DNA of 64,000 bases, from NCBI GenBank assembly GCA_964016885.1, contig OZ024759.1, positions 6,076,001-6,140,000 of the forward strand, in the 5' to 3' direction. The translations under genes were made by a program, and so were the position numbers. The stretch's first letter is position 1, and each line of letters starts with the position of its first letter. Positions 6,470 to 23,822 of this stretch are shown here, one piece after another. The notes under the pieces are model-generated. The model was not told the DNA's origin. It was given only the letters and a program-made list of their open reading frames with translations, and did no database searches. The DNA is from Eledone cirrhosa (lineage: Eukaryota).

Positions 6470-9460
6470 TTTACACCAACTTCTCCATCGATCCATGAAG
6501 ACATGAAAAACATTCCCACCACACGCTTGAAATCGCGCAAATCATTTTGGGAATCTATTAAAACCCTTCAGGACAATAATTTCTGTAGCAAGAGTGGCGA
6601 AGATCGTGGAATGAGTCCAAATTTGCGAACCAAGACCTCGTCCAGGATCCCACATCTAAACCAGACGGCTTTGACCTTCCCAGAAATCAATGGACGTCCT
6701 TTGATCAGATCCACACAACAGAGGTCAGGACAGCCCATCATCTCCATTGATGGGAAATGAAAGAGAGCCAACCATGTGGCTGTGGGGTCCCTGACTAGAC
6801 AGTACTACATGTGGTTGTGGGGTCCCTGACTAGACAGTACTACATGTGGTTGTGGGGAACCTGACCAGACAGTACTACATGTGACTGTGGGGTCCCTGAC
6901 CAGACAGTACTACATGTGACTGTGGGGTCCCTGACCAGACAGTACTACATGTGACTGTGGCGACCCTGACCAGACAGTACTACATGTGGCTGTGGGATCC
7001 CTGACTAGACAGTACTACATGTGACTGTGGGGTCCCTGACCAGACAGTACTACATGTGGCTGTGGGGTCCCTGACCAGACAGTACTACATGTGACTGTGG
7101 GGTCCCTGACCAGACAGTACTACATGTGACTGTGGGGACCCTGACCAGACAGTACTACATGTGACTGTGGCGACTCTGACTAGACAGTACTACATGTGGA
7201 TGTGGGGTCCCTGACCAGACCTGACCAGACAGTACTACATGTGACTGTGGGGTCCCTGACCAGACAGTACTACATGTGACTGTGGCGACCCTGACTAGAC
7301 AGTACTACATGTGGATGTGGGGTCCCTGACTAGACAGTACTACATGTGGATGTGGGGTCCCTGACTAGACAGTACTACATGTGGCTGTGGGGTCCCTGAC
7401 CAGACAGTACTACATGTGACTGTGGGGTCCCTTACCAGACAGTACTACATGTGGCTGTGGGGTCCCTGACCAGACAGTACTACATGTGACTGTGGCGACC
7501 CTGACTAGACAGTACTACATGTGGATGTGGGGTCCCTGACCAGACCTGACCAGACAGTACTACATGTGACTGTGGGGTCCCTGACCAGACAGTACTACAT
7601 GTGACTGTGGGGTCCCTGACCAGACAGTACTACATGTGACTGTGGGGTCCCTGACCAGACAGTACTACATGTGACTGTGGCGACCCTGACCAGACAGTAC
7701 TACATGTGGCTGTGGGATCCCTGACTAGACAGTACTACATGTGACTGTGGGGTCCCTGACCAGACAGTACTACATGTGATGTGGGGTCCCTGACCAGACA
7801 GTACTACATGTGACTGTGGGGTCCCTGACCAGACAGTACTACATGTGACTGTGGGGACCCTGACCAGACAGTACTACATGTGACTGTGGCGACTCTGACT
7901 AGACAGTACTACATGTGGATGTGGGGTCCCTGACCAGACCTGACCAGACAGTACTACATGTGACTGTGGGGTCCCTGACCAGACAGTACTACATGTGACT
8001 GTGGCGACCCTGACTAGACAGTACTACATGTGGATGTGGGGTCCCTGACTAGACAGTACTACATGTGGATGTGGGGTCCCTGACTAGACAGTACTACATG
8101 TGGCTGTGGGGTCCCTGACCAGACAGTACTACATGTGACTCTGGCGACTCTGACTAGACAGTACTACATGTGACTGTGGGGTCCCTGACCAGACAGTACT
8201 ACATGTGACTGTGGGGTCCCTGACCAGACAGTACTACATGTGGCTGTGGGGTCCCTGACCAGACAGTACTACATGTGACTGTGGCGACCCTGACTAGACA
8301 GTACTACATGTGGATGTGGGGTCCCTGACCAGACCTGACCAGACAGTACTACATGTGACTGTGGGGTCCCTGACCAGACAGTACTACATGTGACTGTGGG
8401 GTCCCTGACCAGACAGTACTACATGTGGCTGTGGGGTCCCTGACCAGACAGTACTACATGTGACTGTGGCGACCCTGACTAGACAGTACTACATGTGGAT
8501 GTGGGGTCCCTGACCAGACCTGACCAGACAGTACTACATGTGACTGTGGGGTCCCTGACCAGACAGTACTACATGTGACTGTGGGGTCCCTGACCAGACA
8601 GTACTACATGTGACTGTGGGGTCCCTGACCAGACAGTACTACATGTGACTGTGGCGACTCTGACTAGACAGTACTACATGTGACTGTGGGGTCCCTGACC
8701 AGACAGTACTACATGTGACTGTGGGGTCCCTGACCAGACAGTACTACATGTGACTGTGGCGACTCTGACTAGACAGTACTACATGTGACTGTGGGGTCCC
8801 TGACCAGACAGTACTACATGTGGCTGTGGGGTCCCTGACTAGACAGTACTACATGTGACTGTGGGGTCCCTGACCAGACAGTACTACATGTGGCTGTGGG
8901 GTCCCTGACTAGACAGTACTACATGTGGATGTGGGGTCCCTGACTAGACAGTACTACATGTGGCTGTGGGGTCCCTGACCAGACAGTACTACATGTGACT
9001 GTGGCGACTCTGACTAGACAGTACTACATGTGACTGTGGGGTCCCTGACCAGACAGTACTACATGTGACTGTGGGGACCCTGACCAGACAGTACTACATG
9101 TTACTGTGGGGTCCCTGACTAGACAGTACTACATGTTACTGTGGGGTCCCTGACTAGACAGTACTACATGTGGCTGTGGGGACCCTGACTAGACAGTCCT
9201 ACATGTGGCTGTGGGGACCCTGACCAGACAGTACTACATGTGGCTGTGGGGACCCTGACCAGACAGTACTACATGTGACTGTGGGGACCCTAACCAGACA
9301 GTACTACATGTTACTGTGGGGACCCTAACCAGACAGTACTACATGTTACTGTGGGGACCCTAACCAGACAGTACTGGATGTTGTTTGGGGATTGTCCTCT
9401 CAGACATTTTCCCGGCTGCCTGGAGGCAATCCAAAATGCTGTAAATTATGCCTTGGTCTG
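6470..9460 (+). mobile_element. Degenerate non-LTR retrotransposon 3' end (C-terminal Cys/His knuckle region), split by a minisatellite
   Basis: RLKSRKSF before the array, CDCGVPDQTVLH within it and DCPLRHFPG..IQNAVNYALV after it fit a LINE ORF2 C-terminus. Confidence 0.6.
6774..9376 (+). repeat. 35-bp minisatellite, ~74 copies
   Basis: Unit GTGACTGTGGGGTCCCTGACCAGACAGTACTACAT, with recurrent variants (GGCGACTC; duplicated CTGACCAGAC). Confidence 0.97.
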
Positions 9461-9670
9461 TCTCTCTAACTATTGTGACACCTTGGTCTGGCTCTCTAAC
9501 TATTGTGACACCTTGGTCTGGCTCACCTGTCTCTCTAACTATTGTGACACCTTGGTCTGTCTCTCTCACTAGTGTGACACCTTGGTCTGGCTCACCTGTC
9601 TCTCTAACTATTGTGACACCTTGGTCTGTCTCTCTCACTAGTGTGACACCTTGGTCTGGCTCACCTGTCT
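9449..9670 (+). repeat. 30-39 bp minisatellite, ~6 copies
   Basis: CCTTGGTCTG(GCTCACCTG)TCTCTCTAACTATTGTGACA repeated. Confidence 0.9.
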
Positions 9671-10370
9671 CGTCCTGTCTCTCTATTGAGCATATGTCAT
9701 ACGACAAGAAGAATCAATCCATTCATACATTCTCTTTATTTCTACATGTATAGCTCAGGCTGTAAATGTAGTTGTGTAGGTGTTTAGCTGTATTCTATAT
9801 TAGTAGCAGGGATTACATCCTTAAAGAAGATATAGAGGTAAGGCTGTATGTTTACGTTTCATGGTTGCGGAAAAGATCAGAAGGCATAGCTAAACATAAT
9901 AAAGATTTATTTTTGCTTGACATGAATGCATGTACAAAGGGCGTGAAGTGGTACAAAGATCCTGTATAACAAAGCTGACATGTAATGGCAAATCTCTTAA
10001 TGGTAAGTACTTTAGAACCAAGTTGTCGGTTACAGTAAATGTCCTAAAAGCTGTATAACTACTCATTGTTAGAGAGCAAAGTGACAGGAGTAGGGAAGCC
10101 ATTACGGGCTGCTGGTGTTGACAAAATGCAAGGCGTAACTGCTAGGTAGTTTTGAAAGATGGTGCATTGACCGGGAAAGCCATTTGTAAGTTGCTGGTGT
10201 CGACAAAAAGCAAAAAGCAACTGCTAGCTAGAACTGAAAAAAGGCGCGAAGCAAGTGCTGGGCGGAAGTCATCTTTTGTATTCATACACCACCAACCCTA
10301 AGGGCTGGCGAGTGACAAAGCACGACCAAATTACTCTGCAGCCATAAAATAGTGCCATTGCTTGCTACAG

Positions 10371-11243
10371 GTCACGACTCAAAACACACAGTCCACACTG
10401 TAAATGTGGTCGTGTAAGTGTCACGACTAAAAGCACCTAGTCCACACTGTAAATGTGGTCGTGTAAGTGTCACGACTAAAAGCACCTAGTCCACACTGTA
10501 AATGTGGTCGTGTAAGTGTCACGACTAAAAGCACCTAGTCCACACTGTAAATGTGGTCGTGTAAGTGTCACGACTAAAAGCACCTAGTCCACACTGTAAA
10601 TGAGGTCGTGTAAGTGTCACGACTAAAAGCACCTAGTCCACACTGTAAATGAAGTCGTGTAAGTGTCACAACTAAAAGCACCTAGTCCACACTGTAAGTG
10701 AAGTCGTGTAAGTGTCACGACTAAAAGCACCTAGTCCACACTGTAAATGAGGTCGTGTAAGTGTCACGACTAAAAGCACCTAGTCCACACTGTAAATGAA
10801 GTCGTGTAAGTGTCACAACTAAAAGCACCTAGTCCACACTGTAAATGAGGTCGTGTAAGTGTCACGACTAAAAGCACCTAGTCCACACTGTAAATGAGGT
10901 CGTGTAAGTGTCACGACTAAAAGCACCTAGTCCACACTGTAAATGAGGTCGTGTAAGTGTCACGACTAAAAGCACCTAGTCCACACTGTAAATGTGGTCG
11001 TGTAAGTGTCACGACTAAAAGCACCTAGTCCACACTGTAAATGAGGTCGTGTAAGTGTCACGACTAAAAGCACCTAGTCCACACTGTAAATGAGGTCGTG
11101 TAAGTGTCACGACTAAAAGCACCTAGTCCACACTGTAAATGAGGTCGTGTAAGTGTCACGACTAAAAGCACCTAGTCCACACTGTAAATGAGGTCGTGTA
11201 AGTGTCACGACTAAAAGCACCTAGTCCACACTGTAAATGAGGT
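10371..11243 (+). repeat. 49-bp minisatellite, ~18 copies, inside a SINE/RTE-tail-type element
   Basis: Unit CACCTAGTCCACACTGTAAATG(A/T)GGTCGTGTAAGTGTCACGACTAAAAG. The flank 11243-11398 continues into the element seen in reverse at 1551-1790. Confidence 0.95.
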
Positions 11244-11569
11244 TGGTGCTAGGAAGGATATCTAGTCATAGAAAACCAGCCAGAAACAGTCCTTTATGAG
11301 CAAGACACAGTCACCCAACCCAATTTACCTCTAATGGGACAAACCTGTCTAACCCATGCTAGCATGGAAAATAGACATTAAACGATGATGATGATGATTT
11401 AGCAAAGTTAAAAAATATATAACTCACTTTGTATGTGGAGAGTTATATATAATAGTATATTATGAAACAAAAAGTTCCTACTAAGGACTGAACACAAGAA
11501 AATCAAATTTCCACCTTCGTCACCTCCATCTCTCCCGGTCTCCTCATCTCTCACTATTATAAGTAAATG

Positions 11570-12960
11570 GGGTCCCACACAGTAGCCAACTCCCTGCTGA
11601 TGGTGGCAAGTAGGCAGGTAGTCCTAAGCCAAGGACACCAGTATTCTCCACTGCCATGGACTTGACCACAAACCTGTCGGAGATATTTGGAGAGTTTGCC
11701 CTCCTTGGCCCAAAATGCAGCAGAACCTTGATTAGTCACAGACTGCATAGGTTGCCACTGGAGAAAGTGTTGCTGCATGTGGCATCACACTGCAGAATGG
11801 CAAGATGGTCTTGCCGTCTGGCCCTTTGCCATCCCCTCAGTTCAGCTCTGCCAGCTCAAGTTGAGAGAGGCAGCCTACAGCATCTAAACCATGCTTTAGG
11901 AACTCATTGAGAGCAGCATGGCATAGAAGATGGCCAGCGAGTGGAGGTCGTAAGAGTCTACAGTGGATCCACAGTGACATTTGTATAACTCACAGATCTG
12001 GAGACCAAGCCTCAAGGAAACCCTGATTTGCAGATGAGGGTAAGGTATTGAGCCACGCATCGCTGTGGGGTTGTAAGGCCGAGCAAAAACAATCGAAGCA
12101 GTGCTGCTCGAACTGGCGCACTAGCCTGTCCGAGACCATGTCGCACTAGCCTGTCCAAGGCAATGTCGCACTAGCCTGTCCGAGGCAATGTCGCACTAGC
12201 CTGTCCAAGACCATGTCGCACTAGCCTGTCCAAGGCAATGTTGCACCAGCCTGTCCGAGGCAATGTCGCACTAGCCTGTCCAAGACAATGTCGCACTAGC
12301 CTGTCTGAGGCAATGTCGCACTAGCCTGTCCGAGGCAATGTCGCACTAGCCTGTCCAAGACAATGTCGCACTAGCCTGTCTGAGGCAATGTCGCACTAGT
12401 CTGTCCGAGGCAATGTCGCACTAGCCTTCCGAGACCATGTCGCACTAGCCTGTCCGAGACCATGTCGCACTAGTCTGTCCGAGACCATGTCGCACTAGTC
12501 TGTCCAAGGCAATGTCACACTAGCCTTCCGAGGCAATGTCACACTAGCCTGTCCGAGACCATGTCGCACTAGTCTGTCCGAGACCATGTCGCACTAGTCT
12601 GTCCAAGGCAATGTCACACTAGCCTTCCGAGACCATGTCACACTAGCCTTCCGAGGCAATGTCGCACTAGCCTGTCCAAGACCATGTCACACTGGATGGC
12701 ATCCCATATGCTCTGGGTGGAATTTGACATGGGGAAGAGGAGGATGGACGTCCACTGAGTGGACTCTGAACCATGTCTTGCAGGCAGCCTCACATTCCTC
12801 AATCACAGTGGGTTCTGTTGTATTGTGGAGAACCCCGTTGATGAGGACATGGAAAGAGGTTACCAATGAAAGGAACACTGGCAAAGCCAGCGAGATTGGA
12901 GACGAAGGCCACTGTTTCTGATGGGTAAGGTGGCCTGTTGCCATCCATTGCCAAACAGTT
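11570..12960 (-). mobile_element. Degenerate CRE-like non-LTR retrotransposon, C-terminal zinc finger plus restriction-like endonuclease region
   Basis: Manual minus-strand translation across frameshifts gives DAWLNTLP, LRLGLQICELYKCHCGS, HAALNEFL, GDGKGPDGKTILPF, DATC and MAVENTGVLG. Confidence 0.65.
12116..12692. repeat. 25-bp minisatellite, ~23 copies, inside the CRE-like element
   Basis: Unit ATGTCGCACTAGCCTGTCCGAG(GCA/ACC). Confidence 0.95.
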
Positions 12961-18243: not shown

Positions 18244-18282
<39 letters not shown>

Positions 18283-18390
18283 AATGTATGTATAGTATAT
18301 TTGTATGTTTATCTAAAAACATTTTGAAGACCATTCGCTATGAATTTTAAAGTAGTGACTATGTCACTTATTCTCGGCTGGCAGAGGTCT

Positions 18391-18433
18391 ACAGTCCTGA
18401 TGAAGGGTAATGACCTAGAAACATGTTGATTGT
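18391..18433 (+). ncRNA. Type I hammerhead ribozyme motif (HHR1), palindromic helix III
   Basis: ACAGTC-CTGATGA-aGGGTaatgACCTa-GAAA-CATG-TT/GATTGT. Helix I extends through GAGG/CCTC and CTGGC/GCCAG. Confidence 0.75.
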
Positions 18434-18559
18434 TCCTCAAAGCCAGTTTTGAACAAACAGGTGACGATCGGTCACCAGCACAACTTCAAATCGGGATCGT
18501 TTGTTTACAAACGAATCGAACATTATTATTAATGTTCGATATAACCCTACGTATATATA

Positions 18560-18785
18560 GGTAATTTACTATTTTACGTTCGTAAACTAAACGATTCCCG
18601 AATGTCAATAAAAAAAAAAAACTTTATTAAAATTAATACAATAAACTTTATTAAAATTAATACCTGATACTACTTTTGCAGCATTTTCAATTAGCAGTAA
18701 TTTGTATTAATTTTAATAAAGTTTTTTTTTTTTTCATTGACATTCGTCAATCGTTTAGTTTACGAACGTAAAATAGTAAATTACC
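18560..18785. mobile_element. MITE-like foldback with ~80-90 bp TIRs, flanked by TA
   Basis: GGTAATTTACTATTTTACGTTCGTAAACTAAACGATT... is mirrored by ...AATCGTTTAGTTTACGAACGTAAAATAGTAAATTACC. Confidence 0.75.
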
Positions 18786-19594: not shown

Positions 19595-19688
19595 GCCTCG
19601 GTAGCGCAGTAGGCAGCGCGTCAGTCTCATAATCTAACTAAAATCTCGAGCTATCTGAAGGTCGTGAGTTCGATCCTCACCCGGGGCA
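19595..19688 (+). tRNA. Elongator tRNA-Met(CAT) with a 21-nt intron (19632-19652)
   Basis: Acceptor GCCTCGG/CCGGGGC+A, anticodon CAT at 19628-19630, T loop TTCGATC. The spliced product is 73 nt and nearly identical to metazoan tRNA-Met-e. TATA-like tract ~25-30 nt upstream. Confidence 0.95.
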
Positions 19689-22175: not shown

Positions 22176-22366
22176 TAATATTTTCTCTCTCTCTCTTTCT
22201 TCCCTATCTTTCCCCAGCGTCATTTAAATAAACGGTTGTTTTTTCAATTATTTACACATTCATTTGCATATTCACACATAACTTTAATGTTTCCACTATC
22301 CAGTGAACTTCTGACCGATAAGGTATGATTTTCATGGGTACCTCTTTATTTATAAAACAAACTTTG

Positions 22367-22431
22367 TATTTTATCTGATGAAAGCGCACCAAGATTGGGT
22401 TGGTTGCCCTCGAAATATATATAATAAAATA
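22367..22431 (+). ncRNA. Type I hammerhead motif (HHR2), long helix II
   Basis: TATTTTAT-CTGATGA-[AAGCGCACCAA..TTGGTTGCCCTC]-GAAA-TATATA-TA/ATAAAATA. Confidence 0.65.
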
Positions 22432-22537
22432 AATATGGTTTTATAAATATAGTTTACATTTATTTAATATCATTGAAAATTTAAGTAAGTTAATTTTTTT
22501 GAAAAATTTTTTTTAAAGAAATTTTCTTATTTTACGT

Positions 22538-22600
<63 letters not shown>

Positions 22601-22604
<4 letters not shown>

Positions 22605-23090
22605 ATTAGAATACTGGAGCGTGTTTGAGTCAAACACCCTCTTCGTATTATAGAAATGACAGTAAAAGGTATAGCGCAATGCAGTTAAACAGAGCCGAAA
22701 AATTAAGAGAGTAAAACAAAGAATCCTTTAATACATCAAAAGTTTTTATTAGCCGACAATGTTTCGTCCTATTAAGGACTCATCAGGGCAATCAAAACAA
22801 CAAGAAGTAATTTCGGCAGATACAAGCCAGAAACTCTGAAGAATATGGGGTTTACATTTACTAATGTCTTACAAGGATATAGGATAATAAAAATGAGGAT
22901 AAAACTATAATAACTAAGGATGTAGATGACATTAAGAACCATATTACAAATATGGTCCAAAGTCACCAACTTAAATCTAAACAAATTTGGTTATATAGAA
23001 CAGGAATTATATATAACACAGTATAATACATTCTAATAATAATATATCTATACCAACACTGAAATTCCAAATCAAAAATCAAAAGGTGCG
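22601..23090 (-). mobile_element. Penelope-like pseudo-LTR or non-autonomous element inserted in (TA)n
   Basis: AT-rich segment between (TA)n tracts carrying a canonical hammerhead followed directly by AATAAA. Confidence 0.6.
22752..22789 (-). ncRNA. Canonical minimal type I hammerhead (HHR3)
   Basis: GCC-CTGATGA-GTCCTtaatAGGAC-GAAA-CATTG-TC/GGC with a GUC cleavage triplet. Confidence 0.88.
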
Positions 23091-23142
23091 ATATATATAT
23101 ATATATATATATATATTTGGATTTAATGCTCTGAAATAGCGA

Positions 23143-23258
23143 TATATATGTGAAGACAAACATAGAATATTCGAAAATATTCTGTATGTTTATAATAAAT
23201 GTTTATTATAAACATACAGAATATTTTCGAATATTCTATGTTTGTCTTCATATATATA
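23143..23258. repeat. Near-perfect palindrome, ~56-bp arms
   Basis: TGAAGACAAACATAGAATATTCGAAAATATTCTGTATGTTTATAATAAA-TG-reverse complement. Confidence 0.9.
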
Positions 23259-23540
23259 TATATATATAAACGGAAAAAATGAAACGAAATTTCATTTCCC
23301 ACTCTTACGGAAATGTAAGTAACGGCTGTTACTTAAATATAAGTATGTACACGTACATACATATATGTATACAGACGTACAGTAGTATGTATATATATAT
23401 ACATACATGCACACATATATATATATGTACGTATGGATTCACCGAACATTTATTATAATGCTTGGTGTAAACAAACATCCCGTATTAAGCCGTAGTGTCT
23501 AGCAACCATCGTTGCTCGTTTGTTCAACACTGACAAAGAA

Positions 23541-23583
23541 ACGCTGTACTAGTTTCAAGCTTATTAGCTATCGTCAGCAACGT
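23541..23583 (-). ncRNA. Type I hammerhead motif (HHR4), palindromic helix III
   Basis: ACGTTG-CTGACGA-tAGCTaataAGCTt-GAAA-CTAG-TA/CAGCGT. Confidence 0.75.
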
Positions 23584-23822
23584 ATACCTTCCTGCCAGAT
23601 TGTTGAACGTATATACTTACCTTATGCATATTAACGGGTAAATCAATAATTATTAACCTTATGCATATTAACGGGTTAATCGTTAATTATTAACGGCTGA
23701 GTAGCCCAATTTGCATATCGATTGGGTTAATCGGCCGATTAACCCATATATATATGTGTGCATGTATATATATATACATACTACTGTACGTCTGTATACA
23801 TATATGTATGTATGTGTACATA

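Follow-up and report, generated by a model that had tools for sequence, protein, structure and literature searches.

The window analysed here is a 64,000-nt stretch of Eledone cirrhosa DNA (contig OZ024759.1), and all positions below refer to it. It holds two segments, copy A and copy B, which are truncated copies of dispersed, protein-free tandem-repeat families. Copy A and its immediate neighbours comprise the following features.

18272..18374, minus strand: truncated piece of lineage J, which over 115 nt matches the J unit of locus L274 at 81% identity (E 1e-25)
18378..18559, plus strand: copy A, covering positions 157-342 of the family A unit (427 bp), 90% identity to a natural unit (L017)
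18391..18433, plus strand: type I hammerhead of copy A, with helix I at 18391-96/18428-33 and the core at 18397 (sequence and core scan), helix II at 18405-16, palindromic CATG at 18422-25 and the predicted cut at 18427/18428
18460..18476, plus strand: hairpin P2, GGTGAC/GTCACC, both-side changes in 6 of 6 pairs across families
18478..18485, plus strand: 5' strand of the module:tail helix, a family-level pairing; one substitution, partner strand absent in copy A
18498..18513, plus strand: tetraloop hairpin P4, CGTTTG-TTTA-CAAACG, incompatible with the long stem of the initial annotation
18515..18540, plus strand: hairpin P5, both-side changes in 8 of 9 pairs
18560..18785, strand not assigned: unrelated element with terminal inverted repeats of ~37 bp and TA flanks, sitting inside the TA spacer of copy A

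A 5' truncation removed the promoter and the distal outer-stem arm of copy A, its tail is lost too, and the TA spacer, which lies within hairpin P6, is split by the inverted-repeat element. The J piece is also 5'-truncated, ends at its first 3' site followed by (TA)n, and stands head-to-head with copy A across a 3-nt junction. Copy B is more complete.

23341..23737, minus strand: copy B, covering positions 79-416 of the family B unit (416 bp), 95-98% identity
23744..23825 (approximate limits), plus strand: inverted 5' fragment of copy B from the TA-rich hairpin region, which stops at site 1 and has no tail
23709..23717, minus strand: start of the upstream promoter element (TATGCAAAT...), of U6/U6atac type, with a putative promoter function
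23610..23615, minus strand: TATA box (putative function), position kept in A, B, B2, B3, C and H
23541..23583, minus strand: type I hammerhead, core at 23577, predicted cut 23547/23546
23441..23516, minus strand: downstream module, with P2 at 23516-23501, the long-range strand at 23495-23488, P4 without its 3' arm, and P5 at 23466-23441
23345..23436, minus strand: P6, a long internal TA/TG-rich hairpin that lineages D, H and J do not have
23268..23340, minus strand: tail of the Penelope-like element (PLE) type, between site 1 (23341/23340) and site 2 (23268/(AT)n)

Copy B retains most of the unit and the tail, with a 6-nt deletion in P4 and an insertion of ~12 nt in the tail, where a small site-1 hairpin is followed by the 3' strand of the long-range helix (23327-23322), a tail hairpin and a T6 run. 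An internal duplication (37-bp tandem, 23619-23694) places its upstream promoter element ~50 nt away from the TATA box. The copy B module scores 109 bits with a model (R1) trained on other B copies. The element extends beyond the limits given in the initial annotation; the unit is 416-427 bp long, and ~180 of these were covered by that finding. The initial annotation had also read CC.TACGTA with the following (TA)n as an insertion junction. In A, B, B3 and C this (TA)n opens hairpin P6, and the true ends lie ~85 and 150 nt beyond it.

Elsewhere, the window has a tRNA with a CAT anticodon (19595-19688, plus strand) and an insert of ~23 nt in the anticodon loop, probably an intron; a 108-bp satellite with 313 copies and 94% matches (30514-64000); several other minisatellites (6773-12693); and an exon with 85% identity to an Octopus bimaculoides protein. 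Next to the copy B tail, an AT-rich palindrome (23127-23247) ends in a J-like tail piece (77% over 66 nt).

A core scan of the window recovered four hammerhead-like cores, at 18397 (plus), 23577 (minus), 22375 (plus) and 22786 (minus), the last two being those of other, separate families. The first two, CTGATGA at 18397 and CTGACGA at 23577, had been proposed in the initial annotation and were found again by sequence and core scan. Helices I, II and the palindromic helix III are present in both copies, as is the outer CTGGC stem. The position of the predicted cut after 18427 agrees with the sequence (triplet GUU), and its predicted equivalent in copy B is after 23547 (GUA). Rfam, run against the window, returned neither the copy A nor the copy B hammerhead at E <= 1. 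Full cores with covarying helices I-III occur in A, B, B2, B3, C, D, D2, H, J and G. Where helix III is a 4-nt palindrome, as in A and B, cleavage would probably take place in dimers, and family H has a closed helix III; for frog retrozyme dimers, the available part of a preprint (10.64898/2026.07.22.740005) gives in vitro cleavage in only one of nine tested.

Two PLE-related repeats with hammerheads are also found in the window. On the minus strand, 22600-22960 is a PLE-1 terminal repeat that includes a hammerhead of its own, scored by Rfam as Hammerhead_1 at 31.7 bits, which is below the cut-off. A full PLE-1 of 4.85 kb in locus L303 has an RT/EN ORF, presumably Hydra-like, and 96 of the 100 PLE-1 copies listed run into TA repeats. 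On the plus strand, 22300-22484 is a hammerhead repeat named PLE-4, often head-to-head, with 2,520 first-look candidates and no ORF in 15 loci.

In terms of abundance, a first look at genome G000 (3.0 Gb) gave 2,301 candidates for copy A and 1,066 for copy B. A pattern joining the hammerhead core to TGAACAAAC had 6,957 exact matches there, against 0 for the reversed-pattern control. Patterns joining promoter and core had 9,006 and 25,838 matches (~35,000 units) against one for each control, and among the first 100 matches listed per pattern 3 of 200 look like chance, L194 being one. The flanks of copies give a unit length of 416-427 bp for families A and B, arranged as follows: a tail of ~60 nt, the upstream TATGCAAAT element, the TATA box, the long outer stem enclosing the hammerhead, and then P2, P4, P5 and P6.

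We distinguish at least six diverged lineages, A, B (with B2 and B3), C, D (with D2), H and J, plus single degenerate copies of G and I. Lineage J (317-bp unit) was reached via the window's own flank and has hammerhead, module and tail, without the upstream element. Over all lineages the tandem units span 308-482 bp (308-469 bp for seven reference units, 317-482 bp for periods). Arrays reach at least 7 units in B and more than 25 near-identical units in C. GC content is 0.36-0.41 in the seven reference units, in all of which the longest ATG ORF is of 30-112 aa, that is, without protein-coding capacity.

Searches outside these families returned little. Rfam had no match to the units at gathering score in 13 loci or at E <= 1 in the window, and the module pattern had 0 matches in metagenome contigs. 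The read sets of organisms B and C (25% of words) gave 12 and 1 contig pieces, too few for covariation. A SINE-type head derived from a small RNA (tRNA, 5S, 7SL or snRNA), with its internal promoter, is absent from the units, which lack an Rfam match and have their promoter-like elements upstream of the predicted start.

The family had been described as unrecognised in the initial annotation. It falls in a known class, the non-LTR retrozymes, as characterised in the available text of PMC7229834; this assignment is made because of the size of the unit, its type I hammerhead, the tandem arrangement, the low GC content and the absence of an ORF. We consider it very probable that the units are of the retrozyme class and are moved by PLE enzymes. 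The earlier proposal of a non-coding, hammerhead-bearing mobile family targeted to (TA)n is supported.

Next, the downstream module. In alignment A5, which was fitted to the tested structure and has related rows (3 of 19 partial or spurious), both-side changes occur in 19 of 24 pairs, a result equalled by 0 of 500 shuffles, in agreement with the selected, covarying module of the initial annotation. The GGTGAC/AGCAAC hairpin and the terminal hairpin were both confirmed. One correction to the initial annotation is that its TGAACAAAC/GTTTGTTTA stem shows no covariation. The module folds with z = -4.6 in copy A and z = -1.9 in copy B.

A covariance model trained solely on 19 B/B2 copies gave 76-85 bits in A, 56-73 in B3, 15-39 in C, 16-32 in H and 17-18 in D, each match directly after a hammerhead. 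Matches in D and the weaker ones in C and H count by position alone, because TA-rich noise reaches ~25 bits (one reverse-strand match had 33). A hairpin scan free of any alignment found P2, P4 and P5 in this order in most of 15 copies. P4 is absent in D2 and below threshold in J, and P6 is absent in D, H and J. The single G and I copies have no module.

This ordered multi-hairpin architecture, kept across lineages, could be taken, as the initial annotation had suggested, as a second catalytic RNA fold, for example a ligase or a second self-cleaving motif. Such a fold is very improbable, given that loops and whole hairpins vary or drop out, that no invariant block of unpaired bases is present, and that Rfam has no match either in the window (E <= 1) or in 13 loci (gathering score).

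The TGAACAAAC/GTTTGTTTA stem has the same sequence in A and B, and a comparison of the two therefore yields no covariation for it. Across families it has 0 both-side changes, 66.7% of cells paired and 368 of 500 shuffles as good, in a test that used an alignment fitted to the rival structure. When nine intact copies were folded with the upstream arm, its probability was 0.00 in eight and 0.58 in one. The stem can form in copy B because the 6-nt deletion takes out the competing CAAAC arm, and copy A is without the competing upstream arm because of its 5' truncation. A conformational switch between this stem and P4, set by the upstream arm, was considered and set aside as weak (1 of 9 copies favours the stem without the arm). 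We also rejected a local hairpin P3, the weakest helix (81.6% paired), whose strand is taken by the long-range helix. A short closing helix round P4 and P5 (CGGGAT with CC.TAC) appears in single folds only, and on the alignment 140 of 500 shuffles were as good.

As for the ends of the insertions, family B arrays stop at one of two fixed points separated by 63 nt, and in most cases (TA)n follows. Among 62 distinct B array ends (60 loci), 21 are at site 1 and 16 at site 2 into (TA)n; 6 more are tailed with another flank and 19 were left uncalled by the regular expression. Contigs from an independent read set have loose ends at the end of the tail (unit position 63), followed by AT repeats. The first 3' site of C, D, H, J and B3 is as in B. 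Head-to-head junctions number 38 in 156 loci, 37 of them between members of the same family, the exception being the J/A junction of the window. Ten B insertions have two arms, and in nine of them the tail is on exactly one arm (one had no call).

A tail with two ends, partial tandems and inverted 5' copies make up the PLE signature (available text of PMC8557442), and the PLE tail corresponds to the stretch of RNA from one internal RT start site to a second, one of the two lying in a stem-loop (PMC11167929). As an internal control, an intact RT/GIY-YIG PLE of G000 has two ends 55 nt apart into (TA)n, and the autonomous PLE-2 has the same two-end pattern as the units. The young intact PLE of G000 was scored at 99-100% identity in 129 places. 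One such element (L123, G000:C4:322581000-322590900) forms 4,211-bp tandems with two overlapping ORFs, the first of 476 aa without a Pfam match and the second of 775 aa with RT and GIY-YIG; where they overlap, a TTTTTTA run may serve for a -1 frameshift.

The initial annotation had suggested looking for the module at the ends of RT/GIY-YIG Penelope elements. It was not found in the five PLE terminal repeats examined (PLE-1, -2, -3, -4 and -7), where neither the tail profile nor the module model R1 had a match, and the post-hammerhead regions of PLE-1 and PLE-2 have folds unlike the module:tail domain. By their motifs, we take PLE-1 to be Hydra-like and PLE-2 to be Neptune-like. No ORF was seen in PLE-4. 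A tail pattern search gave 194 matches, with D-like copies in the 100 listed. PLE-3 has its own terminal repeat in nine loci, among the matches listed (30 loci).

These results bear on the possibility that the units are detached terminal repeats (pLTRs) of a so far unfound autonomous PLE, with arrays grown mainly by DNA recombination as satellites. PLE pLTRs do have a promoter, a hammerhead and a tail (available text of PMC8557442 and PMC6765202), satellite growth by recombination is discussed in the accessible part of 10.64898/2026.07.22.740005, and some arrays have more than 25 near-identical units. Moreover, our comparison covers five PLE terminal repeats, against 34,553 first-look candidates for PLE proteins in G000. 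On the other hand, no PLE ORF stands in line upstream of a unit in 156 loci. Four candidate partners were rejected: L184 is a D-like copy fused to a PLE-3 fragment, so chimeric; in L305 a separate J insertion lies behind a PLE fragment; and the PLE fragments of L017 and L158 are on the opposite strand. The tail is followed by a promoter and the next hammerhead, with no ORF, and arrays on many contigs share fixed 3' ends and inversions, which are not a product of recombination. We regard detached pLTRs as improbable.

Structurally, the module is connected to this tail. An 8-bp helix, absent from the initial annotation, pairs the strand just after P2 with a strand of the tail. In an unbiased search for the best long-range helix it ranked first or joint first by frequency in A, B, B2, B3 and H and came second in C; for D, D2 and J, individual copies gave it. 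Within families 78 of 80 positions pair (10 chosen representatives), against 6.3 of 8 across families. Both sides change at 6 of the 8 positions, and the remaining two pairs are invariant. For six distant lineages, 1 of 720 permutations, the true assignment, reaches the pairing score of the helix. Module windows were shuffled as a control because the 5' strand had been chosen by complementarity, and 10-485 of 20,000 shuffles per lineage matched the observed pairing. Of 74 B-group copies, 70 have Watson-Crick pairs at each of the two varying positions tested.

The helix is the closing stem of a multibranch loop with P4, P5, the optional P6 and a small hairpin containing site 1, which is located just ahead of the tail strand in B, B3, C, D, H and J. 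Unconstrained circular folds of natural monomers contain it in three of four cases (B, C and B3; not J). The minimum-energy fold of J is without it, and the linear fold of B has an alternative pairing in its place. We are highly confident that the module and the tail helix form a selected structure. Since the helix closes the loop around site 1, the domain is read as a start signal for reverse transcriptase (RT), a modelled function that we hold to be probable. The RT-recognition role guessed in the initial annotation thereby gains structural support, from a module that pairs with a PLE-type tail around the first 3' end and would bind the protein.

Alternatively, the module and tail helix could be a scaffold for stability or processing (circle compactness, nuclease resistance, ligation, export or a host RNP), with the PLE reading only the tail sequence and AT microhomology. 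Circular monomers are 59-71% paired, like other retrozyme circles (available text of PMC7229834), P4 and P6 are dispensable, the primary sequence of the tail is kept across lineages, and retrocopies of U6atac suggest that RNAs without the module are copied. A scaffold is nonetheless unlikely. In each of the six lineages tested, the best-conserved long-range helix pairs into the tail and encloses site 1, and the two invariant pairs out of eight suggest recognition, beyond stability. The U6atac retrocopies (L301/L299), one head-to-head with a family H unit and one on (TA)n, suggest that the machinery moving the units may also copy host Pol III RNAs.

Upstream of the hammerhead, the units have the TATGCAAAT element and a TATA box. 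In the same genome, three U6 genes and one promoter-bearing U6atac gene have TATG(C/G)(A/T)AAT at -77 to -79 and TATA at -30; the element is in 4 of 4 Pol III snRNA genes and in 0 of 8 Pol II (U1/U2) snRNA genes. A matrix built from the four Pol III genes scores 17.0 in A and 13.8 in B, against a maximum of 13.8 over 59,562 positions of the window, and both families were found independently of the element. One mutated A copy scores 8.1. Families C, D, G and H were chosen through the promoter pattern, so their match to it is not independent. Spacing from element to TATA is 43-46 nt in the units versus 47-49 in U6/U6atac, that is, 3-5 nt short. Furthermore, A and B have a U1/U2-like TCAG 26-27 nt before TATA, which U1/U2 genes have at -56 to -58. 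With these features the promoter is a hybrid, which speaks against a straightforward Pol III assignment.

By all three rulers (U6, U1 and U2 spacing) the predicted start falls 74-78 nt downstream of the element, immediately ahead of helix I. In all 9 placeable arm-bearing copies (11 lineage copies), the distal outer stem pairs with bases upstream of this start, which implies selection on read-through or circular RNA. The tail has T4-T6 runs in A, B, B3, C and J, and such runs are absent from the transcribed region in A, B3, C and H; Pol III would stop before the next promoter because of these runs in the tail. Judged on sequence, a functional snRNA-type promoter is likely, and Pol III is slightly favoured as the polymerase.

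Some observations concern the snRNA genes themselves (L061-L063, L297, L073-L075, L354-L361). The Pol III snRNA genes of the genome share the element at -78 and TATA at -30, and U1/U2 share TCAGT at -57 and a TATA-like stretch, all of which would be useful for octopod expression cassettes. In family H (L233-L239), judged by eye, the promoter region is a short tandem of octamer-like and GATCAGT motifs, and a motif like the U1/U2 3' flank follows P5, a possible Pol II 3' box.

Taken together, we favour, at a probability of roughly 0.68, non-LTR retrozymes with a predicted snRNA-type promoter, a hammerhead and a module:tail domain that likely marks the start site for a trans-acting PLE reverse transcriptase. 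From this promoter, transcription would begin slightly upstream of helix I, by a few bases, as the U6, U1 and U2 spacing indicates. Read-through over tandem units would be followed by successive hammerhead cuts, probably as dimers, giving unit-length RNA that is likely circularised, as in other retrozymes. The external promoter would survive retrotransposition because the monomer RNA includes the promoter of the next unit. The 8-bp helix, whose pairing is backed by covariation, would join module to tail around P4, P5, the optional P6 and the site-1 hairpin and present them to the protein. A putative (TA)n-cutting PLE endonuclease/RT may then begin synthesis either at site 1 or at site 2, which is ~60 nt farther along. 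An RT running round the template would account for tandem arrays truncated at the 5' end and for head-to-head pairs in which a single arm has the tail.

A more far-reaching view, which we put forward tentatively, is a distinct class of PLE parasites: circular self-processing RNAs that include the snRNA promoter of the next unit, have their RT start on a multibranch domain closed by the module:tail helix, and are able to carry host Pol III RNAs such as U6atac. If true, this would be the first RT-recruitment fold defined by covariation for the telomerase-related PLE enzymes, and one recognised in trans, the terminal repeat of the enzyme's own element being of different sequence.

Compared with known systems, the units resemble the metazoan non-LTR retrozymes of coral, mussel and axolotl in the available text of PMC7229834: type I hammerheads with a weak helix III, low-GC tandems (below 45-50%) of 150-450 bp, ranging from dimers to multimers, and no ORF or LTR layout (that text gives these retrozymes no LTR, PBS, PPT or ORF). 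A U.U or A.A mismatch at the helix II base is shared with the axolotl HHR_Amex2 described there. Beyond the retrozymes in that text, the units have a defined predicted promoter, PLE tails, head-to-head inversions and a covarying module:tail domain; in the part of PMC7229834 available, "promoter" is used solely for T7 constructs. RNA expression and circles are demonstrated in it for its retrozymes, whereas the units here are known from genomic sequence.

The retrozyme class is already known, and the link to PLEs has been proposed in 10.64898/2026.07.22.740005. In the accessible part of that preprint, retrozymes are proposed as non-autonomous PLE derivatives, co-occurring with endonuclease-positive PLEs. 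As far as that part goes, its basis is Xenopus pLTR similarity and co-occurrence, with no mollusc; here it is the insertion signature, which suggests PLE enzymes working in trans, and no pLTR homology was found.

Among PLEs, Poseidon of Anolis (PMC11167929) likewise has a hammerhead, after which a tail is delimited by two internal RT start sites. Partial tandemisation, inverted copies of the 5' part and AT-rich or microsatellite targets are shared with Poseidon (PMC11167929) and, in the available text of PMC8557442, with Naiad and Chlamys; the same text describes non-autonomous head-to-tail Chlamys elements, without canonical hammerheads. The units differ from PLEs in having no ORF, in a tail of ~45-63 nt versus 30-40, and in the non-coding covarying fold between hammerhead and tail, where a PLE has ORF sequence.

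Lastly, units that combine promoter and hammerhead are also known elsewhere, and the units here differ from schistosome Sm-alpha and newt satellite 2 in their U6/U6atac-type upstream element and in a mapped insertion signature and RT-start fold. The Sm-alpha promoter is tRNA-type and internal, and that of newt satellite 2 is snRNA-type. In the available text of PMC6765202, Sm-alpha (Pol III) and newt satellite 2 (Pol II) have promoter and hammerhead within the unit, as here, so that an upstream unit transcribes the next.

Within the literature covered on retrozymes and PLEs (supplements, Repbase and Dfam lie outside this scope), we found no description of a promoter, a direct insertion signature or a start-site fold. 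Likewise, the words hammerhead and ribozyme are absent from the main text of the cephalopod repeat papers checked (supplements and Repbase/Dfam again outside this scope). The superfamily, with ~35,000 matched units of 300-480 bp, makes up a sizeable share of the repeats of an octopod genome and is probably mislabelled.

For animal retrozymes, the open points are how they are transcribed and which enzyme moves them, and for PLEs it is the RNA feature that sets the internal RT start sites. The natural variation of this superfamily addresses all three, retrozyme transcription, retrozyme mobility and the choice of PLE start site: its promoter can be compared with the snRNA genes of the host, its insertion signature with PLE enzymes, and its 8-bp helix, with compensatory changes and bracketing the start site, is amenable to disruption and rescue in an in vitro assay that already exists.
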